Shown here: positions 11,362 to 58,449 of the stretch, piece after piece
How the letters are laid out: each line of letters starts with the position of its first letter
Position numbering within the stretch: position 1 is the first letter of the stretch
The notes under the pieces: generated by a model
The model's input: the letters and a program-made list of their open reading frames with translations, nothing else
Database searches by the model: none
Told to the model about the DNA's origin: nothing
Program-made: the position numbers and the translations under genes
Origin: an uncultured Anaerolineaceae bacterium
GTDB lineage: Bacteria > Chloroflexota > Anaerolineae > Aggregatilineales > Phototrophicaceae
NCBI GenBank assembly: GCA_964639225.1
Contig: CAZXCK010000002.1
Coordinates: 5,507-69,506 of the forward strand
Direction: 5' to 3'
Length of the DNA stretch: 64,000 bases

Positions 11362-11736
11362 GTGCAGAGCCAAACTAATCAGCAGATTATGCTCAACGTG
11401 ATGGTGATGAGTGGTGTTGATGATGGCACACTACTGGCCTGCCACAGTGACAGTGATGGCAGCCAGACAGTTGATAAGTGGACGATCACCATCGGCAGGC
11501 GCGATGAAAATGATATCTGCCTGCGTAATGATACTTATGTGTCCCGCCAGCACGCGAAAATCCACTACAAGAACGCGGCCTGGTGGCTGGAAGACTGCGA
11601 AAGCACCAATGGCACATTCATCGAAAATGCCGAGGACTTCTTCGATGACCAGCCGGTAAAAGGTATCATTCAGATCGACGAGGGACAGCTATTCCGTGTG
11701 GGCCGGACATGGCTGCGTATCCAACCAGCAGAGTAA
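11362..11736 (+). CDS. FHA-domain protein
   Basis: TIGRRDENDICLRNDTYVSRQHAKI...STNGTFIEN is a canonical FHA core. GTG start with a GGGAGA RBS 6 nt upstream. Confidence 0.85.
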   Translation: MQSQTNQQIMLNVMVMSGVDDGTLLACHSDSDGSQTVDKWTITIGRRDENDICLRNDTYVSRQHAKIHYKNAAWWLEDCESTNGTFIENAEDFFDDQPVKGIIQIDEGQLFRVGRTWLRIQPAE

Positions 11737-11740
11737 ACAG

Positions 11741-13705
11741 ATGATGTCAAGAATTGCGCTGAAAGACATATTAATTGGTGCCCGGCAGGAAGCCTATCGG
11801 ATGCGCCACTTCTATCTCGGTGCAGAGCATCTTTTTATTGCGCTGCTGGAGATTCAGGGCAGTATTGCCAGCAACATCATCAAAGAATATGGCCTGACGC
11901 CCGAATATGTTATCAATGCCATCCGGCGTAAGACTGGTAAAGGCAGCAAGCACCGCCTGTGGGCAGGGGTCCCGAACACGCCCCGCATGGAAGTCATCCT
12001 GGACATTGCCGGCGACCTGGCCCTGGACCACAATCGTGAGGAAATCGACGAGCGCGATTTGCTGATGGCTATATTCATGGAAGCTGACAGCGTGCCCGTG
12101 CGGGTGCTGCGCGCCCTGGGGCTGGATAAGATCGAGCACCTGACGCAACTGGCCGCCGAGTACACCATCGCAGACGATTCGCACCGACCTTATGTCGATG
12201 TGATCTTTGGGCCGGACTTTGACCCTGTCGCTGCGCTCTCGGTCGAGCAGATGCTGGTGCTGCGCCGCATGTTCTATGGTTACCAACAGATTCGCGTAGA
12301 ACGCCGGCTGATTGGCGGCTACAGCGATGCGCTGCTGCTGATTGTTACGCCATTGCACGCTGATGGGCGTGAGGACGCGGCAGTTGTTGCCAAAATTAAC
12401 CACGTAGACGCCATTCTCGACGAAGCTCGCCGCTATGAAGTGCGTGTGCGTAACAGCCTGCCCCCCCTAACGGCCCGGCTGGAGGACAAACCCGCTACGC
12501 AAGAAGGAACCAACCTCGCAGGTCTGAAATATACCCTGGTTACCAGCGGCAACAACCGGCAGCCAATGGACCTGCGCGCTATTCTACACGACTGGGGACC
12601 CGCACGGCTGGGAATCTGGCTCAAACGCGAGTTATACCCGACATTCGGTCAGTTGTGGTGGCAGCAGAGCCGTCCCTATCGTTTCCAGGCATGGCGTGAA
12701 TACGACTGGCTGCTGCCGCCCATTCTTACTCTTGAACTCGCGAAGGAAAAACAACTGCCGCCACAGGGTTTTACTGTCCGCATGCCACTCAAGCGTTCCA
12801 GGCTGCGCCAGCTTGAATACGGCGATCTGGTGGCGGTGGAAAACTTCATCGTGCAGAAAATCTACCCGGAACGTAAGGCCATTCAACTTGCCGCCGGGCA
12901 TGGCACAGAATCCGCCCACGCATACAAGATCGAAATACGTGGCATTGACCTTGAAGCCAACACTTACTATCGCGGCGAAATCATTGAGCACATCATCGGT
13001 TCAGTGTGGAAGACACGCAACGAACAATTGATGCACGCGGTCCGCAGCCTGGAACCAGACTTTGACCCAACCGGCGAACGTATACCCGGAATCGACGACC
13101 GGGACGACCGCCTGCCCAATCCAATCGTTGCATTCGACGGCCTGCTTGACAGCTATGTCGATGGCACCCTGAGCACCATTCACGGTGATCTGCATCTGGG
13201 CAATATCATGCTCGGCCCCAACAACAGCAGCTTTCTGATCGACTTTGCACATACACGCGATGGTCACACCCTGTTCGACTGGGCCGTGCTGGAGGTCAAT
13301 CTATTATGCGATGTGGTGATGCCAGCAGCCGGTAGCACCTGGGACGATGCACGCGCTGTTGCACAGCAGTTGATGGCGCTTAACGGCGGCCTGCCGCCCC
13401 ATGACCCTGACTCACCAATCACACAGGCGCTGGCGGCAATCGCCAACATCCGAGAGATTGTTCAGGAGTGCCTGGCTGTCGAAAACAAGTGGTCAGAGTA
13501 TTACATCGCAGTCGCGTTCTGTGCGCTGCGAGCGATGATGTGGGACACACTGCCGCACAGCAGCCGCCGACTGATGCTGCTGGTTGCAGCACTGTCTATC
13601 AACGAGCTGCGCACGCGCTTCCGCCCTGGCAGCGACTCCAACCCACACTCACCAGAAGTAACCGACATCAACATGAGCTTTTGGTCGGGCGAGTTAGGCG
13701 GCTGA
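11741..13705 (+). CDS. Clp_N (Clp R-domain) repeat protein fused to an atypical APH/protein-kinase-like domain
   Basis: Two Clp_N-type repeats at the N-terminus (ARQEAYRMRHFYLGAEHLFIALLE; MEVILDIAGDLALDHNREEIDERDLLMAI). The C-terminal part has kinase-fold motifs: GGYSDALLLIV (Gly-rich loop-like), VVAKI (Lys), HGDLHLGNIM (catalytic loop, ~13181) and LIDFAHT (DFG-equivalent). It starts 4 nt after the FHA gene stop. Confidence 0.7.
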   Translation: MMSRIALKDILIGARQEAYRMRHFYLGAEHLFIALLEIQGSIASNIIKEYGLTPEYVINAIRRKTGKGSKHRLWAGVPNTPRMEVILDIAGDLALDHNREEIDERDLLMAIFMEADSVPVRVLRALGLDKIEHLTQLAAEYTIADDSHRPYVDVIFGPDFDPVAALSVEQMLVLRRMFYGYQQIRVERRLIGGYSDALLLIVTPLHADGREDAAVVAKINHVDAILDEARRYEVRVRNSLPPLTARLEDKPATQEGTNLAGLKYTLVTSGNNRQPMDLRAILHDWGPARLGIWLKRELYPTFGQLWWQQSRPYRFQAWREYDWLLPPILTLELAKEKQLPPQGFTVRMPLKRSRLRQLEYGDLVAVENFIVQKIYPERKAIQLAAGHGTESAHAYKIEIRGIDLEANTYYRGEIIEHIIGSVWKTRNEQLMHAVRSLEPDFDPTGERIPGIDDRDDRLPNPIVAFDGLLDSYVDGTLSTIHGDLHLGNIMLGPNNSSFLIDFAHTRDGHTLFDWAVLEVNLLCDVVMPAAGSTWDDARAVAQQLMALNGGLPPHDPDSPITQALAAIANIREIVQECLAVENKWSEYYIAVAFCALRAMMWDTLPHSSRRLMLLVAALSINELRTRFRPGSDSNPHSPEVTDINMSFWSGELGG

Positions 13706-13778
13706 ATAATCCAGGGCAAAACCGACAAAGGTTGTTATAATCCAATAACATAACAGCTCACTCTGATGGTATCAGGGA

Positions 13779-16700
13779 ATGGCCTTGCACATGGAAGACC
13801 TAACCGGGCAGGTAATCAAAAGCTACGAGCTACGGGAGCGAATCGGTGAGGGAGGGTTTGGCGCCGTCTATCGTGCCCACCAGCAGATCATAAACCGCGA
13901 AGTAGCGATCAAGGTAATCCTGCCGCGTCACGCCAATCATCCGGATTTTATCCGTCGTTTTGAAACCGAAGCGCAGCTTGTCGCCAGGCTGGAACATCCA
14001 CATATCGTCCCCCTGTATGATTACTGGCGCGAACCAGGCGGCGCTTATCTGGTCATGCGCTGGTTACGCGGTGGCAGCGTCCAGCACTCTGTCAGGCAGA
14101 ATGGCCCCTGGGAACCACGTGCCGTCAGCCATATGCTGAACCAGATCGGCGAGGCGCTGGCGGTCGCCCATCGCCAGGGCATTATTCACCGCGACCTGAA
14201 ACCAGAAAACATCCTGCTGGATGAAAACGAAAACGCCTATCTTTCGGATTTTGGTATCGCCAAGCAGTTGAGCGCCTCCACCGGCATCACACAGAGCAAT
14301 TCAATTGTTGGCTCACCGGCTTACCTGTCACCCGAACAGATCAAAGGTGAGGCCTTATCGCCACAGACCGATATTTACGCCCTCGGCCTGGTATTGTTTG
14401 AGATACTCACTGGCAGCAAACCTTACGACGGCGACTCTGCTGCTACACTGATGTACAAACATCTCAGCGAGCCTGTTCCCGACCTGCACGAGGTGCGTTC
14501 GGATATACCCGACGGACTGAACGCTGTCATCCAGCGGGCCACTGCTAAATCGCCGCAAGATCGTTATCCTGATGTGGTCGAGCTGGCACGCGAATTTCGC
14601 CGCGCAGTCCGCGCGATGGTCAACGAAGACACCATTTATGATACGGCGATCATCACCACTGGCAGCCTGGAAATGCCAGAGCCGGAAAATCCTTATAAAG
14701 GCCTGCGAGCCTTTCAACAGGCGGACTCGCTTGACTTCTTCGGGCGCGATGAACTCGTCCGTTTGATTGTAGCTCGCATGTCTGAGCCTGATCCAATCGC
14801 GCGCTTTCTGGCAGTCGTTGGCCCTAGTGGCAGCGGCAAATCCAGCGTCGTAAAAGCCGGCGTTATACCTGCCCTGCGCCAGAACGCCCTGTCCGGCTCC
14901 GATGACTGGTTCATCGTGGAGATGGTGCCCGGCATCGATCCAATGGAAGAGCTGGAAGCCGCACTGCTGCGCATCGCCGTCAATCCGCCAGACAGCCTGC
15001 TCAACCAGCTTAACGAGGACAGTCGCGGACTGGTACGGGCAGTCAAGCGCGTGCTGCCTGACGACACCGAACTGCTATTGGTCATCGATCAGTTCGAAGA
15101 GCTGTTTACGCTCGTCGATGACGAAGCTCAACGCATTCACTTCATGGACAGTCTGGCCTTGGCAATCACGGAAGTGCGCAGCCGAATACGGGTTATCATC
15201 ACTTTGCGCGCCGATTTCTACGACCGCCCGCTGAACTACAAGCGATTCGGCGATCTCATGCGCTATCGGACGGAGATCGTTCTGCCGCTCCACACCGAAG
15301 AACTGGAACGCGCTATCACCGGACCGGCTGCGCGTGTGGGCCTCTCGCTGGAACCCGGCCTGGTGACAACCATTGTAGCCGACGTTAACGAGCAACCGGG
15401 CGCACTTCCCCTGCTCCAGTATGCACTGACCGAGTTGTTCGAGCGTCGTGAAGGTCACACGCTCACAATGGAGGCCTACAACGAAATTGGCGGCACGATG
15501 GGCGCTCTGGCCCGGCGCGCTGACGAACTCTACGCTGGTCTGGGGCATGATGGCCAGGAAGCCGCCCGCCAGATATTCCTGAGACTGGTTACGCTGGGCG
15601 AAGGTACTGAAGACACCAGACGGCGCGTGCTGCAATCCGAGCTTTTGTCACTTGGCGACGACCCGGACCTGATGGAGATGATACTCGACGCTTTCGGTCG
15701 CTATCGCCTGCTGACGTTCGACCACGACATGACCACCCGTACTGCTACCATCGAAGTAGCGCACGAGGCGCTGATTCGCCAGTGGCAGCAGCTGCGCAAC
15801 TGGCTCGATGACAGCCGAGAAAACCTGCGCACCCAGCGTCGCCTGAATACAGCAGCCGAGGAATGGCTATTATCAGGGTGTGACCCCAGCTTCCTGGCGA
15901 GAGGCGCACGCCTGGAACAGTTCGAAAACTGGCAGCAGACATCCGGCCTGGCGCTCAACGAACACGAAACCGATTTTTTACAGGCGAGCATCGAAGAGCG
16001 TGAGGCACGTATCGCCGAAGAAACTGCTCGGCAGCAGCGCGAAGCTGCACTCGAAAAACGCTCGCAGGATCGGCTGAGGGCACTGGTGGCAGTTATGAGT
16101 GTGGCAACGGTTATCGCGGTGATCCTGGCCGTAATCGCGGTCACGCAGAGCCAGGAAGCCGAGACCGCCCGCACCGAAGCTGAGAGCAGCGCCGAAATTG
16201 CCCAGGCCAACGCCGCCGAGGCGAACGGTCTGGCGCTGGCCGCCAACGCTCGCAACGCATTGATCGAGTACAACCCTGTCCTTGGCCTGACACTGGCACA
16301 GGAAGCCGCCAGCATGATCCAGCCACCACCTCTGGAAGTCATGCGCGTGCTGGCCAGCGCGGCCTATGGCCCGAACGTCCGCGCCCGCTACAGCGATCAC
16401 AATGCCAGTGTAACCGGAGTCACCTTCAACGACGATGGCAACCTTATCGCATCGACTTCGATTGATGGCTCAATTCGCGTATGGGATACGACAACTCACA
16501 CCAGTACGCTGATCATTGAACAACCAGCATTAATCTTTACCCACGCCGAATTCAGTCCGGATAGCACGACACTGCTGGCTGCTGCTGATGATGGTGTCAT
16601 CTACCTGTTCGACACGCAATCCGGGGAGGAAATCCGACGGTATATCGGTCACACTGATCTGGTCACGCAGGTAGCTTTCGCGCCGGATGGTAACACCTTT

Positions 16701-18362
16701 CTGTCAGGGTCGCTGGACCGCACGCTGCGCTACTGGGACATAAATGCGGGGGCGGAAATCCAGCGCTTCGACGATCACAGCGGAGTCATACTCGATGTCG
16801 CCATCAGCCCGGATGGCCGGTTGGCTGCGTCCAGTTCCGGAGACGAGACCATCCTGGACACCAATGATGACATCATCGATCGAACTGTGCGCGTATGGGA
16901 CATCGAAACCGGCGACATCATCCAGACAATCGAACTGGGTGGGGGGTTTGTACGGGCAGTCGATTTCAGCCCGGATAGCAGCCAGATCGTCAGCGGGGCA
17001 TGGACCTCACAAACGGGTGGGCTGGTGCGTCTGTGGGATATTGAAACCGGCACGGAGTTACAGCGCTTTTTCGGCCACACCGACATCATCACCGGTCTGC
17101 GCTTTATGCCAGATGGCCAACAGATCGTTTCGGCCTCGTGGGACCAAACAGTACGCCTGTGGGATATCGATACGGGTATTGAGGTCACGAGATTCGAACA
17201 TTTTGAGGATCGTGTACTGACATTAGCTGTCAGCACGAACGGTGAGCATATTGTCGTCGGCACCGGCGACTACGGCGGCAACGAGATTAATCGCGATGTG
17301 GAAAACGCGACTGACCCAAGTGTCTGGTTAATCGACTTGAGAAACCGTACTCAGGTACGTGAATTTATCGGCAGCGAGGATTGGCTTTGGTCGCTCGACA
17401 TCAGCCCGGATGGTGTCTATGCAGTCACTGGCTCTGGCGCACTGCGCGCCCCATTTGTCGATACTGATGTGCGTGTGTGGCACATCTCTACCGGCGAAAT
17501 CCGCCACCGTCTGCGCGCTCACAGCGAAACGGTCGAGAGCGTTGCTTACAGTCCAGACGGTCAGTGGATTGCTTCTGCTGGTTGGGACGGTCTGGTAATT
17601 CTGTGGGATGCCAACAACGGTATGGAGATTCGGCGTTTTGGCAGCGAGGGTCGCGCCCATGCCGGGCAGGCGAGCGCCGTTGCATTCAGCCCGGACGGAC
17701 GGCTTATCGCATCCGGCGACAGCAACGGCGAAATTATTATCTGGGAAACGGAAACGGGCACTGATATCCACAACATGCAGGGCCACGCTGGACTGATCGA
17801 AGGACTCGTGTTCACACCAGATGGCCAGAGCCTCATATCTGCCTCACGCGATTCTACCATCCGCATGTGGGATGTGGCCACTGGTGCCGAGATTCAGCGT
17901 TTTGCCGGGCATGGTAATCGAGTGAGCGATGTCGCCGTATCGCCAGACGGGACGCAGATATTGTCTGGCGGCTGGGACCTGCGCGTCATCCTGTGGGATT
18001 CTGCCAGTGGTGACATTATCCGCGAATTTGTTGGCCACAGCGGACAGGTGCAGGCAGTCGCCTTCGACGCTACCGGCGCACTGGCGATCAGTGGCGCGGC
18101 AGATACCAGCGTGCGCGTGTGGGATGTGACCACTGGCCAGGAATTGCACCGTCTGGATGGTCACACCAACTGGATTTCGGGAGTACGCTTTACTCCCGAC
18201 GGCGAGTTTGCGCTATCCAGCGGACAGGACAACATCATGCGTCTCTGGCGCGTCCCGCGCTCTGATTCGGAAATCATCGCCTGGGCACAGCAAAACCGCT
18301 ACCTGCGCGACCTTACCTGTGCCGAACGCGAGAAATTTCGCACACCAGACCAATGCGCCTGA
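13779..18362 (+). CDS. Ser/Thr protein kinase - STAND-type P-loop NTPase - TM helix - 14x WD40 multidomain protein
   Basis: 1527 aa. The Hanks kinase motifs are intact (GEGGFGAVY, VAIKV, HRDLKPENIL, DFGIAK, SPEQ). The NTPase has the lead-in NPYKGLRAFQQADSLDFFGRDE, Walker A GPSGSGKSS (~14820-14846) and Walker B LLLVIDQFEE. A hydrophobic helix LRALVAVMSVATVIAVILAVIAV lies at ~16075-16146. Fourteen WD repeats (VRVWD, VRLWD, VILWD...) span ~16390-18250. Alternative ATG at 13791. Confidence 0.9.
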   Translation: MALHMEDLTGQVIKSYELRERIGEGGFGAVYRAHQQIINREVAIKVILPRHANHPDFIRRFETEAQLVARLEHPHIVPLYDYWREPGGAYLVMRWLRGGSVQHSVRQNGPWEPRAVSHMLNQIGEALAVAHRQGIIHRDLKPENILLDENENAYLSDFGIAKQLSASTGITQSNSIVGSPAYLSPEQIKGEALSPQTDIYALGLVLFEILTGSKPYDGDSAATLMYKHLSEPVPDLHEVRSDIPDGLNAVIQRATAKSPQDRYPDVVELAREFRRAVRAMVNEDTIYDTAIITTGSLEMPEPENPYKGLRAFQQADSLDFFGRDELVRLIVARMSEPDPIARFLAVVGPSGSGKSSVVKAGVIPALRQNALSGSDDWFIVEMVPGIDPMEELEAALLRIAVNPPDSLLNQLNEDSRGLVRAVKRVLPDDTELLLVIDQFEELFTLVDDEAQRIHFMDSLALAITEVRSRIRVIITLRADFYDRPLNYKRFGDLMRYRTEIVLPLHTEELERAITGPAARVGLSLEPGLVTTIVADVNEQPGALPLLQYALTELFERREGHTLTMEAYNEIGGTMGALARRADELYAGLGHDGQEAARQIFLRLVTLGEGTEDTRRRVLQSELLSLGDDPDLMEMILDAFGRYRLLTFDHDMTTRTATIEVAHEALIRQWQQLRNWLDDSRENLRTQRRLNTAAEEWLLSGCDPSFLARGARLEQFENWQQTSGLALNEHETDFLQASIEEREARIAEETARQQREAALEKRSQDRLRALVAVMSVATVIAVILAVIAVTQSQEAETARTEAESSAEIAQANAAEANGLALAANARNALIEYNPVLGLTLAQEAASMIQPPPLEVMRVLASAAYGPNVRARYSDHNASVTGVTFNDDGNLIASTSIDGSIRVWDTTTHTSTLIIEQPALIFTHAEFSPDSTTLLAAADDGVIYLFDTQSGEEIRRYIGHTDLVTQVAFAPDGNTFLSGSLDRTLRYWDINAGAEIQRFDDHSGVILDVAISPDGRLAASSSGDETILDTNDDIIDRTVRVWDIETGDIIQTIELGGGFVRAVDFSPDSSQIVSGAWTSQTGGLVRLWDIETGTELQRFFGHTDIITGLRFMPDGQQIVSASWDQTVRLWDIDTGIEVTRFEHFEDRVLTLAVSTNGEHIVVGTGDYGGNEINRDVENATDPSVWLIDLRNRTQVREFIGSEDWLWSLDISPDGVYAVTGSGALRAPFVDTDVRVWHISTGEIRHRLRAHSETVESVAYSPDGQWIASAGWDGLVILWDANNGMEIRRFGSEGRAHAGQASAVAFSPDGRLIASGDSNGEIIIWETETGTDIHNMQGHAGLIEGLVFTPDGQSLISASRDSTIRMWDVATGAEIQRFAGHGNRVSDVAVSPDGTQILSGGWDLRVILWDSASGDIIREFVGHSGQVQAVAFDATGALAISGAADTSVRVWDVTTGQELHRLDGHTNWISGVRFTPDGEFALSSGQDNIMRLWRVPRSDSEIIAWAQQNRYLRDLTCAEREKFRTPDQCA

Positions 18363-18438: not shown

Positions 18439-18508
18439 ACGCATTATTCGACGGGCATATTCGACGCTTTCTATATGTTTTGTTCATCGAATATGCTGAA
18501 TTATGCGT
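18439..18508. repeat. Imperfect inverted repeat upstream of the S41 peptidase gene
   Basis: The left arm ACGCATTATTCGACGGGCATATTCGA (18439-18464) matches the reverse complement of the right arm TCGAATATGCTGAATTATGCGT (18487-18508). The motif ATATTCGA/TCGAATAT occurs three times. Confidence 0.6.
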
Positions 18509-18553
18509 TATAGTTTTCAACTCAAGCAACCTGACGACCAAGGAAACTCAACA

Positions 18554-20908
18554 ATGCGAGATATTATTCTGACTTTGTTCGCATTCGCAATAACTTTAAG
18601 CATCCTTATTCTGCCAGTGCCAGCCAAAGCACAGGAATCGCCAGAATGGCCGGACGCCGAGATTATCAACGATGAAGGTGGGCCAGTGGTCATCCGTGGT
18701 GAGGTCACCTACACCAACCCCTTCTTTACATCAGGTGTTGCCGCCCCCATCATCATACTTGAAGATCAGGCCGGATTTGTCGACCGTAATGAGTATTTCA
18801 TTTTCCCCCTCGAATCCCAGACGCTCGGCCAGATTACCTCGGACTTCTATACCTCGCCGTTCACATATAGCCTGGCGCTGCCCATCCAGCCGCAGGGGAC
18901 CCTGCGCGATGTAAGCCAGAGTGAAACCGGATCAACCGGTGTGATGGTGTTTGCTGTCGCTTACTGGACCAACACCTGGGGAGACCCTTTCCTTGAGGAG
19001 CGCGATATGTACGGTGGTGGCTGGTCCACTGCTTATGCTTCGACGCGAGTCTCATCGGACCCTGAGCGTCTGCGCGAAATCGTTGGTGGCAAGCTTGTCG
19101 TATATGCTCCTGACAATGAGCAGGGTTTTCCAGCCGGATTTGGTGAAGATGGCCTGCTTTTCACCGAGGACGATCCAATAGTGAGGGTACCGCGAGGCTG
19201 GACCGTTGTGGACCTGGAGACCACCCCATTCTCCTTTGATCGCAGCCGCGAACAACAGATTGACCTGCTCGAACCGGACGAATCCGCGCTGGTTGACTAC
19301 AGCGACCTGAGCTTTACTGAAGCCTTCGACAACATGGTGGATAAATTCAGCAAAGAATACGCCTTTACTGAATACTACGACATCGACTGGCAGGCGCTTA
19401 GCGACGAGTTCCGCCCCCGCTTTGAAGAAGCCCAGGCTCAGGGAAACAACAATGCATATCTCAATGCGCTGCGCGAATTTCTGTGGCGCATACCTGATGG
19501 TCATGTCGCGTTATCGCCGTTCACGCCTTTTGTTGACCAGTTCCGCAATGACATAGCGTTAGGTATTGGCCTGTCCATCCGTACCATCGATGACGGTCGC
19601 GTTCTGGTCAGCTATCTGCTGCCAGGTGGACCTGCTCAACAAGCTGGCGTTGAGCTGGGGGCCGAGATCGTCGCCCTCGCTGGCCAACCCATTGAAAATG
19701 CCATCGTCGAAACCGAACCCTGGACTCAGCCATTCAGCACGCCACACAATCGACGGCTGGAGCAGGAACGCTTTGTCACACGATTCCCGGCAGCAACCAG
19801 CTCGGTTAACCTCACGTTTCTAAACCCCGGTGACGATGAACCACAAAAGATTGCGTTGACACCAACTGCTGAGTTCGAAAGTTTCCAGAACGGTCTGCTG
19901 GTACAACCGACTGACGGTTTCGAACTCCCGGTTGAATTCCGTGTGCTGGACGGCGGCCAGGGTTATGTGACAATCAACAGCTTTTTCGACAACACGCTGC
20001 TCAGTATTCAGCTCTGGGAACGCATGATTCGTCAGATGATCGACGCCAATGTACCGGGTATTATCGTTGATCTGCGTCAGAATGGAGGCGGCAACGGCTT
20101 CCTGGCCGATCAGATGTCGGCCTATTTCTTCGAAGAAGCGATCGAACTTGGGCAAAGCGGTGCCTATAACCGCGAACTTGACGCTTTCTTCTTCGATCCG
20201 CGTGGTGTGCGCCGGCTGTATCTACCAGAAGAGAATCTACGCTACCTGGGGCCGGTTGCCGTACTGGTCGGGCCGAGCTGCGCCAGCGCCTGCGAGCGAT
20301 TCGCTTATAACATGTCGCTGAGGGATGGGGCTGAAATCGTGGGCATGTATCCAACGGCGGGCCTCGGAGGCAGTGTATCTGACTTCCGCATGCCCCTGGA
20401 TATGACAATTCGATTCACCACCGGACGCTCGGTTGATATGAGTGGCGAGATTCACATTGAGGGCATCGGCATCGCCCCTACTATTCCCGTTCCGGTCAAT
20501 GAGACGACATTGTTTGCCGACAACGATGTTGAACTGGAATATGGTATCGCTGCGCTCAGCGGTCGTACGCTGGTTCCGTCAATTGATGGCGGTCACCTTG
20601 CGCTGGGTGATGTGGTAAGCGGCACGCTTACGCCTGGCACCCGTGTTCGTTATCGCTATTCACTTGAAGGTGGTGTTAACTTCGACCTGTTCATCGAACC
20701 AGACGACGACATCACGACTATCGTCCGATTTTACGACACAGACGGCAATCTGCTGTTAAGCGATGAAGATCAGCAGCAAGCCAACAGTGGTGGCTCCGCC
20801 TTTTTCAGTATGGGAGCACCAACAGACATGGAATTGATTATAGAAATCGCCAGCTTCGCGGATGATGCCAACGCCAACTTCACATTACGCCTGCTGCCTG
20901 CCGAATGA
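18554..20908 (+). CDS. Secreted S41-family (tail-specific/C-terminal processing) peptidase with PDZ domain and a C-terminal beta-rich domain
   Basis: Signal/anchor ILTLFAFAITLSILILPVPAKA, PDZ-like GIGLSIRTIDDGRVLVSYLLPGGPAQQAGVELGAEIVAL, and S41 core IIVDLRQNGGGNG with VLVGPSCASACE. The ATG at 18554 was chosen; the ORF track start is 18503. Confidence 0.8.
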   Translation: MRDIILTLFAFAITLSILILPVPAKAQESPEWPDAEIINDEGGPVVIRGEVTYTNPFFTSGVAAPIIILEDQAGFVDRNEYFIFPLESQTLGQITSDFYTSPFTYSLALPIQPQGTLRDVSQSETGSTGVMVFAVAYWTNTWGDPFLEERDMYGGGWSTAYASTRVSSDPERLREIVGGKLVVYAPDNEQGFPAGFGEDGLLFTEDDPIVRVPRGWTVVDLETTPFSFDRSREQQIDLLEPDESALVDYSDLSFTEAFDNMVDKFSKEYAFTEYYDIDWQALSDEFRPRFEEAQAQGNNNAYLNALREFLWRIPDGHVALSPFTPFVDQFRNDIALGIGLSIRTIDDGRVLVSYLLPGGPAQQAGVELGAEIVALAGQPIENAIVETEPWTQPFSTPHNRRLEQERFVTRFPAATSSVNLTFLNPGDDEPQKIALTPTAEFESFQNGLLVQPTDGFELPVEFRVLDGGQGYVTINSFFDNTLLSIQLWERMIRQMIDANVPGIIVDLRQNGGGNGFLADQMSAYFFEEAIELGQSGAYNRELDAFFFDPRGVRRLYLPEENLRYLGPVAVLVGPSCASACERFAYNMSLRDGAEIVGMYPTAGLGGSVSDFRMPLDMTIRFTTGRSVDMSGEIHIEGIGIAPTIPVPVNETTLFADNDVELEYGIAALSGRTLVPSIDGGHLALGDVVSGTLTPGTRVRYRYSLEGGVNFDLFIEPDDDITTIVRFYDTDGNLLLSDEDQQQANSGGSAFFSMGAPTDMELIIEIASFADDANANFTLRLLPAE

Positions 20909-21005: not shown

Positions 21006-21365
21006 ATGGTTATGGAATCGAAAATGATACAGGTCAACATAGAAAATATGGGCGACGTCACAATTATTGAACTGGCCGGTGAACTCGACTCCACTTCTGC
21101 GCCGCAAATCCAGGAACAGATTTTGAGTGTCGCCGGGCATGGCGGGAAAATCCTGCTGGACATGTCAAAAGTGACTTATATGTCCAGTGCCGGCCTGCGT
21201 ATTCTGCTGCTCATGTATCGCAGGATCAACGAAAGTGAAAACGTAGGCGAGATCGTGCTGGCCGGACTGAACGACGAACTACAGGACATTATGGCAATAA
21301 CCGGATTTCTCGACTTTTTCATTACTGTCGAGGATCGCAGTGCGGCGTTACGAGTCTGGAACTGA
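21006..21365 (+). CDS. STAS-domain anti-sigma-factor antagonist
   Basis: ILLDMSKVTYMSSAGLRILL and LQDIMAITGFLDFF are typical of SpoIIAA/RsbV-like proteins. Confidence 0.8.
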   Translation: MVMESKMIQVNIENMGDVTIIELAGELDSTSAPQIQEQILSVAGHGGKILLDMSKVTYMSSAGLRILLLMYRRINESENVGEIVLAGLNDELQDIMAITGFLDFFITVEDRSAALRVWN

Positions 21366-21368
21366 TTC

Positions 21369-23489
21369 TTGACGATGCAGCGCCGTATCGATACCGAACC
21401 GACCCATTCTTATGGTAATTATCGCATGCGTATCGGTCGCCCGATTCCGCTGGGCGCGACCATTACCCCGGAAGGCATCAATTTCGCCATTTTTTCGCGG
21501 TATGCTTACGACTGCACCCTGGTTTTGTATGAGGTCGGCGCGCCCTACCCCATAGCCGAAATTCCATTCCCAAAAGAGTTCCGCGTCGGCCATGTATTTA
21601 CCATGATTGTATTCGGTCTGAACCACGAGCAGATCGAATATGGCTTTCGTATGAACGGCCCGTATATTCCGCACGAAGGTCATCGCTTCGACGCCAGCAA
21701 AGTGCTACTTGACCCTTACGCTAAAGTCATAAACGGGCGCAATATCTGGGGACAGCCCACCGCTGGCACCGACGATTACCCGTTTCGAGGATGGTCCATT
21801 CTCGACGATTATGACTGGGGCACCGATCGTCCGCCACAAATCCCCATCGAAGACCTGGTCATCTATGAGATGCATGTGCGTGGTTTTACGCAGCATCCAT
21901 CTGCGGAAGTCAAGTACCCGGGCACGTTTGCCGCTATCCGAGAGAAAATACCCTATCTCAAATCGTTGGGTATCAACGCCATTGAGTTGCTGCCAGTTTT
22001 TGAATTTGATGAACTCGAAAACGACCGCCGCAATCCCCTGACCGGTGAGCCGTTGCTTAATTACTGGGGCTACAGCACGATTGGCTTTTTCGCACCCAAA
22101 GCGGGGTATGCGGCAACTGGCCGTTACGGCATGCAGGTCGATGAGTTCAAAACACTCATCAAAGAGCTGCATCGCAATGGCATCGAGGTCATCCTCGATG
22201 TGGTCTTTAACCATACAGCAGAAGGCAACGAAAAAGGCCGTACGCTGTCTTTCCGGGGTATCGACAACAAGACCTATTACATGCTGGGACCAGATGGCCG
22301 CTATCTGAATTTCAGCGGGACTGGCAACACGATGAACTGCAACAATCCAGTGGTGCGCAGCATGGTCCTGGATTGCCTGCGCTACTGGGTAGCAGAGTAT
22401 CATATCGATGGTTTCCGCTTCGACCTCGCCTCCATCCTGGGCCGCGATCAGAATGGTTTTCCACTGGCAAATCCACCCCTGCTTGAAGCGCTGGCTCACG
22501 ATCCGGTACTGGCAAACTGTAAACTGATCGCCGAAGCCTGGGACGCCGGCGGCATGTACCAGGTTGGCAGTTTCCCAGCATATGGTCGCTGGGCCGAGTG
22601 GAACGGTCGCTACCGCGATAGCATGCGGCGCTTTCTCAAAGGCGACCCTGGCCTGACGTGGGAAGCCGCTGAACGCATCCAGGGTTCACCCGATCTGTAT
22701 GGCGAGCGCGGCGCTGCCGCCTCCATCAACTTTATTACATCCCATGATGGATTCACACTCGCAGACCTGTACACCTACAACAACAAGCACAACACGGCCA
22801 ACGGCGAGGACAACCGCGACGGGGATAACAACAACAATAGCTGGAACTGTGGTGTTGAGGGGCCAACGAATGACCAGGCGGTGACCGCGCTGCGCCGCCG
22901 AATGATCCAGAACGCCATCGCTGTACTGATGGTCAGTCGGGGTATTCCCATGCTGCTGATGGGCGACGAGATGGGTCGCAGCCAACAAGGCAACAACAAT
23001 GCCTACTGCCACGACAGCGAGCTAACCTGGCTGGACTGGTCTCTACTCAGGCAGAACGCTGACATGGTCGAGTTCACCCGCAATTGTATCGCCTTTCGTC
23101 ACGCCCATCCTGTTCTGCGCAGCCCACGACATTTCGTCCACCGGGACATCGCCGGCAGTGGTTACGCAGATATCACCTGGCATGGCACCCGCGCCTGGCA
23201 CGCCGACTGGGCCGACTATGTGCGCACGCTGGCCTTTATGCTATGCGGTGAGCATGTACCCGACGATCAGCAGCCCGACGATTACATCTACGTTGCTCTG
23301 AATATGCACTGGGAGCACCACGTCTTCGAGCTGCCCAACCTGCCAGAAGGCATGTACTGGCATCGATTCGTTAACACCAGCGAACATGAACCACTCAAAA
23401 CCTGCCCCCCAGGAAACGAACCATACCTGGACGATCAGCACTATCATTTGCTGGGCGCGCGGTCGGTTGCTATTCTGGTAGGCAGGTAA
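21369..23489 (+). CDS. glgX: Glycogen debranching enzyme (isoamylase, GH13)
   Basis: GH13 conserved regions DVVFNHT, GFRFDLASIL, AEAWD and FITSHDGFTL. TTG at 21369 or ATG at 21375, 3-9 nt after the STAS gene stop. Confidence 0.9.
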   Translation: MTMQRRIDTEPTHSYGNYRMRIGRPIPLGATITPEGINFAIFSRYAYDCTLVLYEVGAPYPIAEIPFPKEFRVGHVFTMIVFGLNHEQIEYGFRMNGPYIPHEGHRFDASKVLLDPYAKVINGRNIWGQPTAGTDDYPFRGWSILDDYDWGTDRPPQIPIEDLVIYEMHVRGFTQHPSAEVKYPGTFAAIREKIPYLKSLGINAIELLPVFEFDELENDRRNPLTGEPLLNYWGYSTIGFFAPKAGYAATGRYGMQVDEFKTLIKELHRNGIEVILDVVFNHTAEGNEKGRTLSFRGIDNKTYYMLGPDGRYLNFSGTGNTMNCNNPVVRSMVLDCLRYWVAEYHIDGFRFDLASILGRDQNGFPLANPPLLEALAHDPVLANCKLIAEAWDAGGMYQVGSFPAYGRWAEWNGRYRDSMRRFLKGDPGLTWEAAERIQGSPDLYGERGAAASINFITSHDGFTLADLYTYNNKHNTANGEDNRDGDNNNNSWNCGVEGPTNDQAVTALRRRMIQNAIAVLMVSRGIPMLLMGDEMGRSQQGNNNAYCHDSELTWLDWSLLRQNADMVEFTRNCIAFRHAHPVLRSPRHFVHRDIAGSGYADITWHGTRAWHADWADYVRTLAFMLCGEHVPDDQQPDDYIYVALNMHWEHHVFELPNLPEGMYWHRFVNTSEHEPLKTCPPGNEPYLDDQHYHLLGARSVAILVGR

Positions 23490-38880: not shown

Positions 38881-38892
38881 TTGAGGCTCATT

Positions 38893-39999
38893 ATGCAGAA
38901 ATTCATCGTTTTCAGCGCACTCTCTGTTCTGATGATTATGCTGGCTGGGTGTAACTTCGATGTACAGGACGCCACGCCGACAGTCGAAAGTATCGTCGAA
39001 GAACCCATTGACCCGCTGCCTGACACCGCCGGCACCGCGACGCCAACACCTTCAGCATCACCCACCCCGATCCAGCAGGTGCGGATTTCCACACCGTCGC
39101 TGGTGCCTACCCTGCGACCCACCGAGACTCTCCTACCAACAGAGACGCCCGGTCCCTGGGAATATGAAATCCAGCAGGGTGACGTACTCACCCTGCTGAT
39201 CCAGCGACCACCCTTTAACTACCGCACAATGGATGTCATCTCCGAAATCGTGAGACTGAACGACAATGTCCCCAATGCGGACTCGCTGCCCGGTCCGGGT
39301 AATGTCATCCTGATTCCCCGCCCCACAGCCACGCCCATACCAGAAGGCATTGAACTCACGCAGGAGATTGCAGCGACGCGCCGGGTTGATGTGCGCGGCC
39401 TGCCAGAAAACACCGAATTTGACTGTCACATTGTCCAGCCGGGCGAGGTGACGGTCGGCATTGTCGAACAGTACGGTGGTCTGACCCTGGAACTGATGAG
39501 CCAGCTCAACGCGGACATCAATTTCTCTGGCTGCAATTTTGAAGAACCCGGCGGCGGCCCCGATTGCAATCCGGTCATTCGTGAAGGTCAGTGCGTATTG
39601 GTGCCCATGCCAACGCCCACGCCAACGCTATCGCCAACACCGTCCGGCAGCGAGACGCCAACGTCCACGCCGACCTATCCACCTGCACGCCTCATTTCAC
39701 CGCCAGAGGGCGCGCTGGTGCCCCCTGGCATTCTTACCCTTCAATGGACCAGTGTGGGTGTTCTTCAAGCTGGAGAATACTATCTGGTAGAAGTAATAGA
39801 TACGACCGCAGAAACTATCTGGAACGATGCCACGCGCAGTACCAACATTCGCCTGCCAGAATCGCTGATACCATCCAGCGGCGAACTTCATCAGTTCACA
39901 TGGAATGTCTCTATTGCGACTATCAATGATGATGGAACCTTCACCCGCGTTCAGGGAGTTCCACTGCGAGAAGGTCGATTCACCTGGCAGAGTCGTTAA
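38893..39999 (+). CDS. Lipoprotein paralogue of the preceding gene (double LysM-like plus the same C-terminal domain)
   Basis: Lipobox MIMLAGC. Shares the linker LSPTPSGSETPT and a C-terminal ~110-aa domain (LQWTSVGVLQAGEYYLVEVIDTT... versus LRWVPTGTLGADQVYRLRVEDTT...) with the upstream gene. Confidence 0.7.
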   Translation: MQKFIVFSALSVLMIMLAGCNFDVQDATPTVESIVEEPIDPLPDTAGTATPTPSASPTPIQQVRISTPSLVPTLRPTETLLPTETPGPWEYEIQQGDVLTLLIQRPPFNYRTMDVISEIVRLNDNVPNADSLPGPGNVILIPRPTATPIPEGIELTQEIAATRRVDVRGLPENTEFDCHIVQPGEVTVGIVEQYGGLTLELMSQLNADINFSGCNFEEPGGGPDCNPVIREGQCVLVPMPTPTPTLSPTPSGSETPTSTPTYPPARLISPPEGALVPPGILTLQWTSVGVLQAGEYYLVEVIDTTAETIWNDATRSTNIRLPESLIPSSGELHQFTWNVSIATINDDGTFTRVQGVPLREGRFTWQSR

Positions 40000-50590: not shown

Positions 50591-50667
50591 ATGAGGCGCA
50601 TTATACATGATTGGCGGCTCCAATAGGATAGTCGCTTGTGTATTTGATCGCAGACAGGAAACAGGCA

Positions 50668-51795
50668 ATGTCAATTCATCTTAAACGAATGTTGGTTATC
50701 AGTATGGCATTGCTGCTTCTGGCAGTGCCGGTCTGGGCACAGGACACCGAAGACACCACCGAGATTACCCTGAGCAATAACAGTGGCACAGGCACGAGTA
50801 CCTGGTTCATCACCGGAGAACCTTCTCTGATTATGAACGGCTTCGATCTCAGCCCGCTAAACGTCAACCTGCCGGTTTCTATCAGCAGTGTGAGCATCGA
50901 CGTCGAGCGTGCGACACCTGGCCAGCCTGTCCAGTTGGTCATCTACCAGGACCCGGGCGGGGGTTCACCGGTTGATGCGACCCTGGTGCAGCAGACACAG
51001 GTAGACATCCAACAGTCGGGGCTTTTTACATATACGTTCCCCGAACCGGTGGAGATCACGGCACCAGTGGTCTGGGTCGGTTTCTACATGCCGGTAGACT
51101 TTGAATTCCGGGCCGACACATCAGGCTCGTCAGTACTCACTTACTGGGCCTGGCAGCCCGGTGGCACATTCGACCTGAGCAATCTGGAATCGGCGGCTGT
51201 TTTCGGTCCGGCAGATGGAAGCGCGCCCGTGAATCTGGATATGGACGGCATCGCCCGCATCACAGCACAGATCATCACCGATGGCAGCGGCGACGTGCCA
51301 TCGACAACTGGCCCCACCACAGGTAGTGTCCCATCAATTGACGACGGCGTGCCACGTGATGACCAGGGGCGTCCGATCCGACCGCTGGTTGGAGACCCGT
51401 CCAGCGTCAACATCGGTGTAATGGTTGGTTACTCGCCAGTCTGCACCGATCTCTATTATGATCGAGAAGATGTCATCGTCACCTATCGCAGCAATCTGGC
51501 CATGCACTGTAACCTGGACCGGCCAGAGTTCCAGCCACCCAGCCCAGACGGGTTCTCACGGCGTGGCGTGGTCTATAACATATACACCTTCGGCGCCACG
51601 CAACAGGAAGCCCTCCCCGACGCCGTGACTCACTGCCTGCGTCCGCCGTCGTCCGATATTGACCGGGCGCTGGTCGGTGTGGCTTACGGTGTTCCGCGCC
51701 AGTGGGAGATTCTGCCAACCGTTCGTTTCGGTGAGCTGATCTGCGCGGAAATCGAGTATGCCGGGGTGATTTCGTATTTTGTGCCCCAGAGTTAA
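50668..51795 (+). CDS. Secreted hypothetical protein
   Basis: Signal peptide MSIHLKRMLVISMALLLLAVPVWAQD. I recognise no motif in the remainder. Confidence 0.6.
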   Translation: MSIHLKRMLVISMALLLLAVPVWAQDTEDTTEITLSNNSGTGTSTWFITGEPSLIMNGFDLSPLNVNLPVSISSVSIDVERATPGQPVQLVIYQDPGGGSPVDATLVQQTQVDIQQSGLFTYTFPEPVEITAPVVWVGFYMPVDFEFRADTSGSSVLTYWAWQPGGTFDLSNLESAAVFGPADGSAPVNLDMDGIARITAQIITDGSGDVPSTTGPTTGSVPSIDDGVPRDDQGRPIRPLVGDPSSVNIGVMVGYSPVCTDLYYDREDVIVTYRSNLAMHCNLDRPEFQPPSPDGFSRRGVVYNIYTFGATQQEALPDAVTHCLRPPSSDIDRALVGVAYGVPRQWEILPTVRFGELICAEIEYAGVISYFVPQS

Positions 51796-57052: not shown

Positions 57053-57230
57053 ACCAATAGCAGCATGATTATATCACGTCACACAGCGTATCGACCTAAT
57101 TGCCAGCGTAAATTCCGACTAACTGTCGGTGATTATGTTCGCTTGAAACCCGAGGCGGCATAATTGCAGCATAACCAGTACAATACACGCATAGAGATTG
57201 TCGGCTATTTTTCAAAAAGGGGGCTTTTTC

Positions 57231-58397
57231 ATGTCGCCAGCCTATGTGACACGCCAGCAACTGGAAGAACATGAAACGCAAATACTGGCTCCTTATGGGT
57301 TGCTCAGCCGGAACAGCCGGGGGCGGTTCCACCCGGAGAACGAACCCAAATACCGTACCGCCTTCCAGCGTGACCGGGATCGGGTTGTCCATTCCGCCGC
57401 GTTTCGCCGCCTGGAATACAAAACCCAGGTATTCGTCAACGATGCCGGCGACTATTATCGCACGCGCTTGACTCACACGCTTGAAGTCGCACAGATCGGG
57501 CGCACGCTGGCACGCGCCCTGGGTGTTAACGAAGACCTAGTCGAGGTGATTTGCCTGGCCCACGACCTGGGCCATCCCCCCTTCGGTCACGCTGGCGAAT
57601 CGACCCTTAATGCGTTGATGAGCGACCACGGTGGCTTCAACCACAACTACCAGAGCTACCGTGTCGTCAGCGAACTGGAGCAGCGTTACCCCAACTGGAA
57701 AGGTCTCAATCTCACCCGCGAGACACTGGAAGGCATTGCCAAACACGAAACTGAATATGACATCAGCGATGTGGCAGGCTTTGATGTTGACATCCGAGGC
57801 AGCATCGAGGCGCAGATAGCTAATGTCGCCGACGAACTGGCCTACAACGCTCACGATCTGGATGACGGCCTGCAGGCCGCTCTCATCGCGCCAGATGACC
57901 TCAACGAACTCGAAATCTGGCGCGAACTCTGCGACCGGTTGGCCTGGCGTAACGGCAAAATCGACGAAATCACACGCCACCGGCTGATCCGCGAGCAGAT
58001 CGGCATGCAGGTCGATGATGTGTTGCAGCAGTCACTGGAAAACCTGGAAGCTCTGAACCCGCAGTCACCGGCAGATGTACAGCGACACACACAGAATGTC
58101 GTCGCACACAGCCCTCGATTCATCGAACTCAATCGCGCCCTCAAACGATTCCTGTACAACAATATGTACAATCACTATACGGTCCTGCGCATGGCAAAAC
58201 GCGCCGAGCGTTTCATCCACGAAGTGTTCACCAGTTACATACAGGAACCGCGCCTGCTGCCAGATTACTACCAGAAGCTGCTGGAAGATGACGACAACTC
58301 CGTGTATCGGGTCGTGGCCGACTATATCTCCAGCCTGACCGACCGCAGCGCCATGCTGGAATACCAGCGCCTGTTTGACCCATTGACGCGCCCGTGA
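57231..58397 (+). CDS. dGTPase-family HD-domain triphosphohydrolase
   Basis: RTRLTHTLEVAQI and LAHDLGHPPFGH (HD motif), plus the N-terminal FQRDRDRVVHSAAFRRL. ATG at 57231. Confidence 0.85.
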   Translation: MSPAYVTRQQLEEHETQILAPYGLLSRNSRGRFHPENEPKYRTAFQRDRDRVVHSAAFRRLEYKTQVFVNDAGDYYRTRLTHTLEVAQIGRTLARALGVNEDLVEVICLAHDLGHPPFGHAGESTLNALMSDHGGFNHNYQSYRVVSELEQRYPNWKGLNLTRETLEGIAKHETEYDISDVAGFDVDIRGSIEAQIANVADELAYNAHDLDDGLQAALIAPDDLNELEIWRELCDRLAWRNGKIDEITRHRLIREQIGMQVDDVLQQSLENLEALNPQSPADVQRHTQNVVAHSPRFIELNRALKRFLYNNMYNHYTVLRMAKRAERFIHEVFTSYIQEPRLLPDYYQKLLEDDDNSVYRVVADYISSLTDRSAMLEYQRLFDPLTRP

Positions 58398-58449
58398 TGC
58401 GCAGTACAATATTCGATTAAGTGTGGGCAGCTTGGGAGTACAAGACGAT

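Follow-up and report, generated by a model that had tools for sequence, protein, structure and literature searches.

We analysed a locus of three co-directional genes on contig CAZXCK010000002.1 of an uncultured Anaerolineaceae bacterium, within a 64,000-nt stretch of DNA that we call the window. According to the list of open reading frames (ORFs), three forward-strand ORFs fill positions 11362–18362. They encode a small FHA protein (gene 1), a protein joining a ClpC-type N-terminal domain (NTD) to a TCAD9 kinase domain (gene 2, ClpN-TCAD9), and a large Ser/Thr kinase (STK) fused to an nSTAND1 NTPase and WD40 repeats (gene 3; Table 1). The start of gene 2 is most plausibly the ATG at 11741, 4 nt past the gene 1 stop. 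Gene 3 begins 73 nt after gene 2, or 85 nt if the MEDL start of its orthologues applies. A terminator scan found no terminator-like site in the gap between genes 1 and 2 or in that between genes 2 and 3. The upstream flank carries thrB, thrC and a NUDIX gene; the downstream flank carries S41 peptidase, STAS, GlgX and iPGM genes. An earlier sequence-only reading of this DNA had described three co-directional genes amid housekeeping genes, with gaps of 4 nt and 73–85 nt, and both the ORF coordinates and the flank annotation agree with it. The FHA, Clp_N, kinase-fold, Hanks kinase, NTPase and WD40 domains that it had named each have a Pfam match, and its mention of an 'nSTAND-type NTPase' and of 'TCAD families' is borne out by matches to PF20703 and PF19974.

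Table 1. Features of the three-gene locus, in window coordinates
Feature	Position	Strand	Basis or remark
Gene 1, FHA protein	11362–11736	+	124 aa; GTG start; GGGAGA 7 nt upstream, Shine-Dalgarno-like
Gene 2, ClpN-TCAD9 protein	11741–13705	+	654 aa; Clp_N + TCAD9 + APH
ClpC-type N-terminal domain, both repeats (aa 8–139)	11762–12157	+	Profile and structure match to ClpC NTD
TCAD9 kinase domain (aa 171–654), with beta-rich insert	12251–13705	+	AlphaFold2 model and Foldseek
Catalytic loop HGDLHLGN (aa 481–488) and Mg-binding Asp501	13181–13243	+	Conservation
Predicted –10 hexamer TATAAT for gene 3	13736–13741	+	TGT immediately upstream = extended –10
Gene 3, STK-nSTAND1-TM-WD40 protein (TM, transmembrane helix)	13779–18362	+	1527 aa
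Hanks-type Ser/Thr kinase domain (aa 16–284)	13824–14630	+	GxGxxG, VAIK, HRDLKPEN, DFG, SPE motifs
nSTAND1 NTPase (aa 305–702)	14691–15884	+	PF20703
Predicted single transmembrane helix (aa 765–791)	16071–16151	+	Mean Kyte-Doolittle 2.95
WD40 region (aa 861–1527), about 14 blades	16359–18362	+	WD40 E 7.5e-109

Gene 1 matches the FHA family (PF00498, E 1e-15, 58.4 bits versus a cut-off of 20.7). The residues that bind phospho-threonine (pThr) in FHA domains (GR, SRxH and NGT) are conserved at 90% or more in 61 orthologues and are present in the window protein. The gene product is thus predicted to be a stand-alone, bare FHA domain that reads pThr. Its similarity to OdhI (E 1e-7) and to FhaB falls below threshold, and it lacks a phosphorylatable N-terminal tail of the GarA/OdhI type. 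A conserved promoter element was sought upstream of the FHA gene, and an extended –10 was found in 1 of 57 loci only.

In Pfam, gene 2 matches Clp_N (PF02861, E 3e-12), TCAD9 (PF19974, E 1.6e-31) and APH (PF01636, E 4e-7). Altogether 443 protein clusters match it at E ≤ 1e-5, and the best 120 of them all have the same architecture. The N-domain aligns with ClpC NTD structures in a profile comparison (E 4e-16 over aa 8–139), and Foldseek superimposes its model on ClpC NTDs with target TM-scores of 0.64–0.80, which points to a complete two-repeat ClpC-type fold. ClpC has two phospho-arginine (pArg) pockets, formed by T7/E32 and by E106 (PMC12583610). The equivalent of the pArg1 glutamate E32 is E29, invariant in gene 2 orthologues; the equivalent of the pArg2 glutamate E106 is Arg105, and that of T7 is Ser3, which is not conserved. 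No AAA match was found in the 654-aa protein, and the NCBIfam models for ClpA/B/K/G score 20–26 bits against cut-offs above 990. Without AAA+ D1/D2 modules, the gene 2 product does not qualify as a Clp ATPase.

What the sequence-only reading had called a divergent kinase-fold domain is a member of a named family, TCAD9 ('ternary complex associated domain 9'), matched over model positions 2–428 of 429 (110.4 bits versus a cut-off of 40). An AlphaFold2 (AF2) model of the full 654-aa protein from a shallow alignment of 25 sequences had a pLDDT of 69 and a disordered active site, and Foldseek found the ClpC NTD only. Modelling only the kinase domain, from an alignment of 69 diverse sequences, gave a high-confidence structure instead (pLDDT 91.7, pTM 0.91). 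The nearest solved folds are then APH(3'), amicoumacin kinase (AmiN), MTR kinase, steroid kinase, Rv3168, the peptide kinase TvaE and the choline kinase LicA. Matches to APH-superfamily kinases have E about 1e-5 and probability 1.0, with TM-scores that are low because of the large beta-rich insert. A sequence search of the PDB returned weak kinase matches only, at the catalytic loop (E 0.03–0.8). Within set A1, D483, H485, N488 and D501 are invariant, and H481 and L484 are conserved at 90% or more. The motif HGD[LIVM]HxxN is found in 71/74 orthologues and the Mg-binding Asp in 74/74. Across 69 diverse members of the TCAD9 family, K218, H481–D483, N488 and D501 are conserved at 90% or more and E228 is invariant. 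By predicted fold and conserved catalytic residues, the TCAD9 domain appears to be a competent APH-like phosphotransferase. The modelled fold alone does not distinguish between protein, peptide and small-molecule substrates.

The kinase domain of gene 3 is recognised both as Pkinase (E 1.5e-55, 188.9 bits) and as a PknB-type kinase (E 1.7e-99). It had been described as apparently active, and its intact GxGxxG, VAIK, HRD and DFG motifs are consistent with that description. The nSTAND1 module matches PF20703 over model positions 1–377 of 379 (E 5.7e-123, 411.7 bits versus a cut-off of 27.1), and its Walker A (GPSGSGKSS) and Walker B (LLLVIDQFEE) motifs are both intact. The motifs quoted in the sequence-only reading (NPYKGLRAF...FFGRD, GPSGSGKSS and LLLVIDQFEELF) are present in the translation, and so are fourteen blade-end W-D-type motifs in the WD40 region, consistent with the two seven-bladed propellers proposed there. 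Tandem Repeats Finder detected no DNA-level repeats in the WD40 region, and hence nothing points to its repeats evolving in a concerted or hypervariable manner.

A very hydrophobic segment of 27 residues, RLRALVAVMSVATVIAVILAVIAVTQS, separates the nSTAND1 module from the WD40 region, with basic residues preceding it and acidic residues following it. The position of this helix, not its sequence, is conserved in all full-length orthologues and in 109/120 family hits. A buried helix was considered instead and rejected on account of the length, hydrophobicity, charge asymmetry and fixed position with variable sequence. Given the conserved transmembrane helix, the WD40 propellers are probably extracytoplasmic. 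The simplest reading of gene 3 is probably a single-pass receptor with kinase and NTPase inside and propellers outside. The proposal that an N-terminal effector is governed by a C-terminal repeat sensor therefore holds for the order of domains (Pkinase, nSTAND1, WD40, that is effector-NTPase-sensor, plus the added helix) but not for a cytosolic sensor, since the helix probably puts the WD40 region outside.

Gene 3 belongs to a very large Chloroflexota family: of the 8000 candidates scored, 6960 reach E ≤ 1e-20. Some other members carry C-terminal periplasmic-binding-protein or FGE-sulfatase domains instead of WD40 repeats. Among gene 3 orthologues, identity is 70–75% in nSTAND1, which is as conserved as ThrC, 63% in the STK domain and 44–46% in the WD40 region; compared domain by domain, nSTAND1 stands at 72% and WD40 at 45%. 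This gradient fits a conserved switch with a diversifying sensor. A Thr-x-x-hydrophobic motif that might dock FHA domains in the kinase-nSTAND1 linker proved uninformative, as orthologues and paralogues both have Thr-rich hydrophobic linkers. Almost all PADLOC matches of gene 3 are generic and cover the kinase domain only. The candidate model PDLC01088 ('C3a189', labelled kinase) spans aa 22–790 (E 5e-50, model positions 5–652 of 840). As it covers kinase and NTPase, a similar STK-NTPase architecture is already among the PADLOC-DB models, which include known and candidate defence systems. PADLOC gave no match for the FHA, ClpN-TCAD9 or S41 proteins. No diversity-generating retroelement (DGR), effector-associated domain (EAD) or partner effector gene was seen with gene 3.

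A profile scan with gene 2 over one genome per GTDB species returned 130 relatives, and the best 80 were examined with 10-kb flanks, in which ORFs were called by a simple longest-ORF heuristic. All 80 loci come from Anaerolineae metagenome-assembled genomes (MAGs), from groups such as Aggregatilineales and Phototrophicales. In tblastn searches with each window protein, FHA lies immediately upstream of ClpN-TCAD9 in 77/80 loci, and the distance from the FHA stop to the ClpN-TCAD9 start is at most 9 nt in 56/60 loci (mode 3 nt). Clustering of all locus ORFs, with which precomputed Pfam labels agree, yields a typical order of thrB(–), thrC(+), a Cys/Met-metabolism pyridoxal-phosphate enzyme(–), FHA(+), ClpN-TCAD9(+), leuB(–), leuA(–), leuD(–), leuC(–). 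Even a homologue of 30% identity has FHA upstream, with a 17-nt overlap, and leuB/leuA/leuD downstream. Opposite-strand housekeeping brackets and tight spacing thus indicate that the pair is a two-gene operon, vertically inherited. Median identities (%) are 54 for FHA, 54 for ClpN and 50 for TCAD9, compared with 61 for ThrB and 70 for ThrC. Judged by these values, the pair seems to evolve at a housekeeping-like rate, about as fast as ThrB.

Variants of the pair were also observed. Loci L069 (6274–10480) and L091 (1742–10079) contain a non-syntenic paralogous cassette of TIR_2, then ParA-ClpN-TCAD9 (989 aa), then FHA, convergent with a nucleotide-cyclase-AAA_16-TPR STAND gene. In the second-copy cassette of L069, FHA has moved downstream of ClpN-TCAD9. 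The same MAG holds a canonical pair (L033), and the kinase and the FHA protein are each 66% identical between the two copies; both genes were therefore duplicated together. TIR-fused orthologues of gene 2 are found in L030 (10004–13045) and as P0061, P0064, P0067, P0071, P0072, P0084, P0092 and P0101. They are about 960–1010 aa long, occupy the same thr/leu slot and contain an extra middle domain of about 170 aa. Their C-terminal TIR_2 domain conserves the S-x-Y-V-x-x-E catalytic-Glu motif.

The sequence-only reading implied that orthologues of all three genes would be co-located. We found this to be true of FHA and ClpN-TCAD9 but not of gene 3, orthologues of which follow the pair in the window and in 8/80 loci of one clade (L004–L010 and L030), while 72/80 loci have the pair without it. 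In a quick neighbour-joining (NJ) tree of the kinase, the window, L004–L010 and L030 fall in one clade that also holds L001–L003, which have no gene 3. The distribution can be explained by one gain and one loss, or by two gains. In the closest relative, L001, TCAD9 is followed straight by S41 after a 39-nt gap, with no gene 3. This clade replaces the downstream leu genes by a variable stretch in which STAND kinase, FAD oxidoreductase and S41 genes occur in varying combinations before STAS-GlgX, and gene 3 therefore sits at a synteny breakpoint. The window's own S41 gene (18503–20908, +) encodes an 801-aa PDZ + S41 peptidase in this stretch past the pair; it is absent from L004, L005 and the majority context.

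A perfect TATAAT precedes gene 3 in 9/9 intergenic regions, 43–58 nt before the start in 8 of them, compared with a background of 0.0116 TATAAT per 100 nt. Its context includes TG at –15/–14 in four lineages and G at –14 in 9/9, and the remaining spacer is not conserved. A generic sigma-70 scan missed this site because there is no –35 match alongside. By this pattern, gene 3 appears to have a conserved promoter element of its own. Three sampled gene 3 paralogues stand alone among transposases, sugar-metabolism or two-component genes, and none of the 3/3 contexts has an FHA or TCAD9 neighbour.

The remaining scanned window ORFs with a Pfam match are housekeeping or ordinary signalling and envelope genes, for example those for NADH dehydrogenase subunits, aldehyde dehydrogenase, MgsA, PurH, ValRS and MutL. 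Base composition is even along the whole window, and no defence genes were found nearby among the annotated window ORFs. The locus is not a defence island. No vWA, MoxR or VMAP/iSTAND gene was found among the annotated window ORFs or the conserved neighbour clusters of the 80 loci, and neither a PP2C phosphatase nor an AAA+ module or McsB-like arginine kinase was seen at the locus. A second Hanks-type Ser/Thr kinase of 467 aa is encoded at 58423–59826 (+; Pkinase E 6e-54), directly after the gene for an HD/HD_assoc phosphohydrolase (dGTPase-like; 57198–58397, +) and near a DUF2207 membrane protein gene (55082–57052, –). The second kinase could also supply the FHA protein with pThr.

TCAD9 itself is not confined to the ClpN fusion. 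We counted 975 representatives of the family at E ≤ 1e-3 in a 50%-clustered library, and sampled other architectures include TCAD9-AAA_16-TPR, Pkinase-TCAD9-TPR, TCAD9-TPR, ParA-ClpN-TCAD9 and AAA_35-HATPase_c_4-ClpN-TCAD9. In TCAD9-AAA_16-TPR, the domain takes the effector position of a STAND protein. Another TCAD9 subgroup adjoins vWA and FGE proteins, the setting in which 'ternary systems' were first described. Locus L086 (3530–9359) contains an nSTAND1-like NTPase joined to Trans_reg_C (its nSTAND1 score of 25.0 bits falls slightly short of the 27.1 cut-off), then Pkinase-TCAD9-TPR, then a Polbeta nucleotidyltransferase/HepT-like toxin-antitoxin pair. In L092 (399–6990), TIR-AAA_35 overlaps the start of AAA_35-HATPase_c_4-ClpN-TCAD9 (1410 aa), with a convergent 275-aa Hanks kinase. 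L030 combines a TIR-fused ClpN-TCAD9 with a STAND kinase directly downstream. The recurrent company of ClpN-TCAD9 (FHA, TIR, P-loop/STAND NTPases, Hanks kinases) fits the repertoire of NTP-dependent conflict or apoptosis-like systems (PMC7159879, PMC8195603). The earlier suggestion of conflict or apoptosis-like hardware gains some support from the TIR-fused orthologues in the same slot and from these NTPase, TIR and Hanks kinase associations. Since the cases are few and partly picked for extra domains, and STAND genes are very abundant, the support is suggestive, not statistical.

Overall, we lean, with modest confidence, towards a locus made of two units, a conserved FHA/ClpN-TCAD9 cassette and a lineage-specific accessory receptor STAND kinase, and not an obligate three-gene system. 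Unit 1 (11362–13705) appears to be a translationally coupled two-gene cassette, vertically inherited across Anaerolineae. Unit 2 (13736–18362) appears to be a self-contained receptor that spans the membrane once and has a promoter of its own; it belongs to a hugely expanded paralogous family and adjoins Unit 1 in one sub-lineage only. The domain identities, the intact catalytic residues, the linkage and co-duplication of the pair, the transmembrane helix and the separate promoter element are directly supported. The idea that the three genes form a system and are not unrelated neighbours is thus supported for the first two, which make one functional unit, but less so for gene 3, with its own –10 element and solitary paralogues.

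Several points weigh against the division into two units. With no terminator between genes 2 and 3, read-through co-transcription is possible, and nine loci of the clade keep gene 3 next to the pair. Paralogue sampling covers only three contexts, and the tree is a quick NJ tree. The fusion or adjacency of TCAD9 to STAND/P-loop NTPases, TIR and Hanks kinases in independent contexts suggests that gene 3 may not be a mere bystander. Among solved structures, TCAD9 is closest to kinases that act on small molecules and peptides, and it may therefore not write pThr. Functional cross-talk between the pair and gene 3 is plausible. The window was pre-selected for the adjacency under study, so that the adjacency itself weighs little, and the contexts of alternative architectures are also few.

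Who phosphorylates whom, the TCAD9 substrate and any coupling between the units are what we infer in the following scheme. An external ligand would bind the WD40 propellers, upon which the nSTAND1 module might switch and oligomerise in an NTP-dependent manner, allowing the Hanks kinase domains to trans-autophosphorylate and create pThr sites. The FHA protein could then dock on pThr of a Hanks kinase or of ClpN-TCAD9 itself. Docking would control the TCAD9 phosphotransferase, with the ClpC-like N-domain picking the protein or peptide client. A C-terminal TIR domain with the catalytic Glu, which ClpN-TCAD9 carries in sister lineages, might provide the output. Unit 2 is plausibly one pThr input in the window's lineage, and the cassette presumably works without Unit 2 in most genomes.

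In line with the sequence-only reading, one could expect instead a single obligate system made up of the three genes, NTP-dependent and of the conflict or apoptosis-like kind, in which the STAND repeats sense, the Hanks kinase writes pThr, FHA reads it and ClpN-TCAD9 acts as effector or regulator. The genes are co-directional with no terminator between them, the arrangement persists in nine loci, and L030 repeats it with a TIR-fused ClpN-TCAD9 upstream of the STAND kinase. Rosetta-stone-type cases point the same way: Pkinase-TCAD9-TPR beside the nSTAND1-like gene (25 bits, below 27.1), TCAD9-AAA_16-TPR, and ClpN-TCAD9 fused to ParA or AAA_35 beside TIR, FHA, Pkinase and cyclase-AAA_16-TPR. Published lists of what nSTAND1-type proteins carry at the N-terminus include both S/T/Y kinase and FHA domains (Kaur et al. 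2021, PMC8195603). However, the pair does without gene 3 in 72/80 loci, and by the NJ tree no more than one or two acquisitions account for the STAND-bearing loci. A conserved –10 element of its own precedes gene 3, 3/3 sampled paralogues have no FHA or TCAD9 neighbour, the context is housekeeping, PADLOC yields mostly generic kinase-domain matches, and the window was selected for the adjacency. We consider an obligate trio unlikely.

A broader proposal, which we regard as improbable, is that FHA plus ClpN-TCAD9, with or without TIR, is an undescribed immune or programmed-death-type module fixed in the core genome of filamentous Anaerolineae. Its N-domain would be a client or phospho-degron reader and its NTPase partners would be interchangeable, either ParA or AAA_35 fused to the kinase or nSTAND1 from the adjacent gene; in this lineage, a membrane-spanning NLR-like receptor kinase would be the partner. 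If this were true, the locus would be a working three-part surface-to-cytoplasm STAND signalling pathway with WD40 sensing an extracellular cue.

The deep and stable synteny of the pair between thrB-thrC-metB-like and leuB-leuA-leuD-leuC genes, seen even at 30% identity, raises another explanation. Gene 3 might be an unrelated neighbour and the pair a metabolic regulator of the GarA/OdhI-PknG type that tunes amino-acid biosynthesis, with the APH-like kinase perhaps sensing or phosphorylating a small metabolite. Housekeeping-like substitution rates, the sub-threshold similarity of FHA to OdhI (E 1e-7) and FhaB, and the small-molecule kinases among the closest TCAD9 folds, including MTR kinase, would agree with such a role. 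The biosynthetic genes on either side run on the opposite strand, though, so the synteny may reflect vertical inheritance only, and the FHA protein lacks the phosphorylatable tail of GarA/OdhI. Moreover, same-slot orthologues gain TIR with an intact catalytic Glu and the duplicate recruits TIR and a ParA-type NTPase, both atypical for a metabolic regulator, and other TCAD9 members stand with vWA/FGE proteins or inside STAND proteins. On balance, this explanation seems quite unlikely. Most doubtful of all is a proteostasis or stress module, in which the N-domain captures pArg-tagged or unfolded proteins or Clp adaptors, the kinase marks them and FHA bridges the client: the complete ClpC-type NTD, the invariant E32 equivalent and an S41/PDZ peptidase gene that could share the theme in the clade's variable stretch (39 nt downstream of TCAD9 in L001) speak for it, but the E106 equivalent is Arg, the T7 equivalent is not conserved, no AAA+ module or McsB-like arginine kinase was seen at the locus, and S41 is absent from the majority context.

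The two-unit locus resembles several known systems in part. TCAD9 was described in 'ternary' conflict systems of the vWA-MoxR type as their APH-like kinase domain (Kaur, Burroughs, Iyer, Aravind 2020, PMC7159879). Gene 2 shares with these the active APH-type catalytic residues, and some of its relatives adjoin vWA and FGE; however, the locus has no vWA, MoxR or VMAP gene, and its TCAD9 differs from that of ternary systems in that it carries a ClpC N-domain, pairs with a separate FHA protein and occupies a conserved core-genome position. The FHA/ClpN-TCAD9 pairing was not found in the main text or one supplementary file of that paper, and this file contains no mention of TCAD9, nSTAND1 or ClpN. 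Likewise, the N-domain shares with the ClpC NTD/McsB phospho-arginine system (PMC12583610, which cites Trentini et al. 2016) the two-repeat fold (TM-score up to 0.80) and the pArg1 Glu equivalent, but it has no AAA+ unfoldase body, has Arg in place of the pArg2 Glu and is fused to a kinase. As in the PknB-FhaA/FhaB and PknG-GarA/OdhI pairs (PMC8546545), a small FHA protein gene stands beside a kinase that presumably controls it, with weak FhaB/OdhI similarity. Unlike in those actinobacterial pairs, the conserved partner kinase is APH-like and not Hanks-type, a phosphorylatable tail is missing from the FHA protein and no PP2C was seen.

Gene 3 is close to the nSTAND1 STAND NTPases (PMC8195603) and the DGR-diversified STK/NTPase-CLec proteins (PMC10907252, PMC7517822). 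The resemblance lies in its full-length nSTAND1 module, its N-terminal S/T kinase (one of the listed modules), its C-terminal repeats that evolve much faster than the NTPase and the existence of FGE/CLec family members. It differs from these proteins in its sensor, a double WD40 behind a conserved transmembrane helix and probably extracellular, in its housekeeping region and in that no DGR, EAD or partner effector was seen. WD40 and FGE sensors are known in the antiviral STAND/NLR-like superfamily (PMC12803255), and gene 3 has the same tripartite order of effector, STAND NTPase and repeat sensor as Avs/NLR-like defence proteins. Its predicted topology, however, puts the sensor across the membrane from the NTPase, there is no defence island, and the PADLOC matches are mostly to the kinase domain.

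A few further features of the window were recorded. A STAS-domain gene of the anti-sigma-antagonist type (21006–21365, +) is followed 3 nt later by the GlgX gene (21369–23489, +), an adjacency retained in L001, L003, L004, L005, L009 and L010. A gene at 59922–61622 (–) encodes a LysM-LysM-GH5-like protein. Three ORFs of 370–400 aa (61828–63039, 50638–51795 and 38881–39999, all +) have no Pfam match at E ≤ 1e-4.

The Aravind group has already catalogued the families of all domains discussed here, and the STK-nSTAND1-sensor architecture has been described in the literature. Our literature searches returned no description of the FHA/ClpN-TCAD9 pairing, of its class-wide core-genome placement or of a family-wide transmembrane helix in STAND kinases, and the pairing and its core-genome setting appear undescribed. 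These findings settle no long-standing question, but they offer testable partners: FHA with pThr sites, TCAD9 with its substrates and TIR with an NADase output. If our reading is true, Anaerolineae share, as a class, an orphan signalling pair that spans several hundred protein clusters and at least 130 species-level genomes. In it, an atypical kinase that is always accompanied by an FHA reader would have co-opted a ClpC N-domain for targeting. 'Conflict-system' parts such as TCAD9, nSTAND1 and TIR could then be stable core-genome genes. To judge by the conserved transmembrane helix, the STAND kinases of this very large Chloroflexota family are receptor-like, with the sensor probably outside, unlike the cytosolic NLR paradigm.

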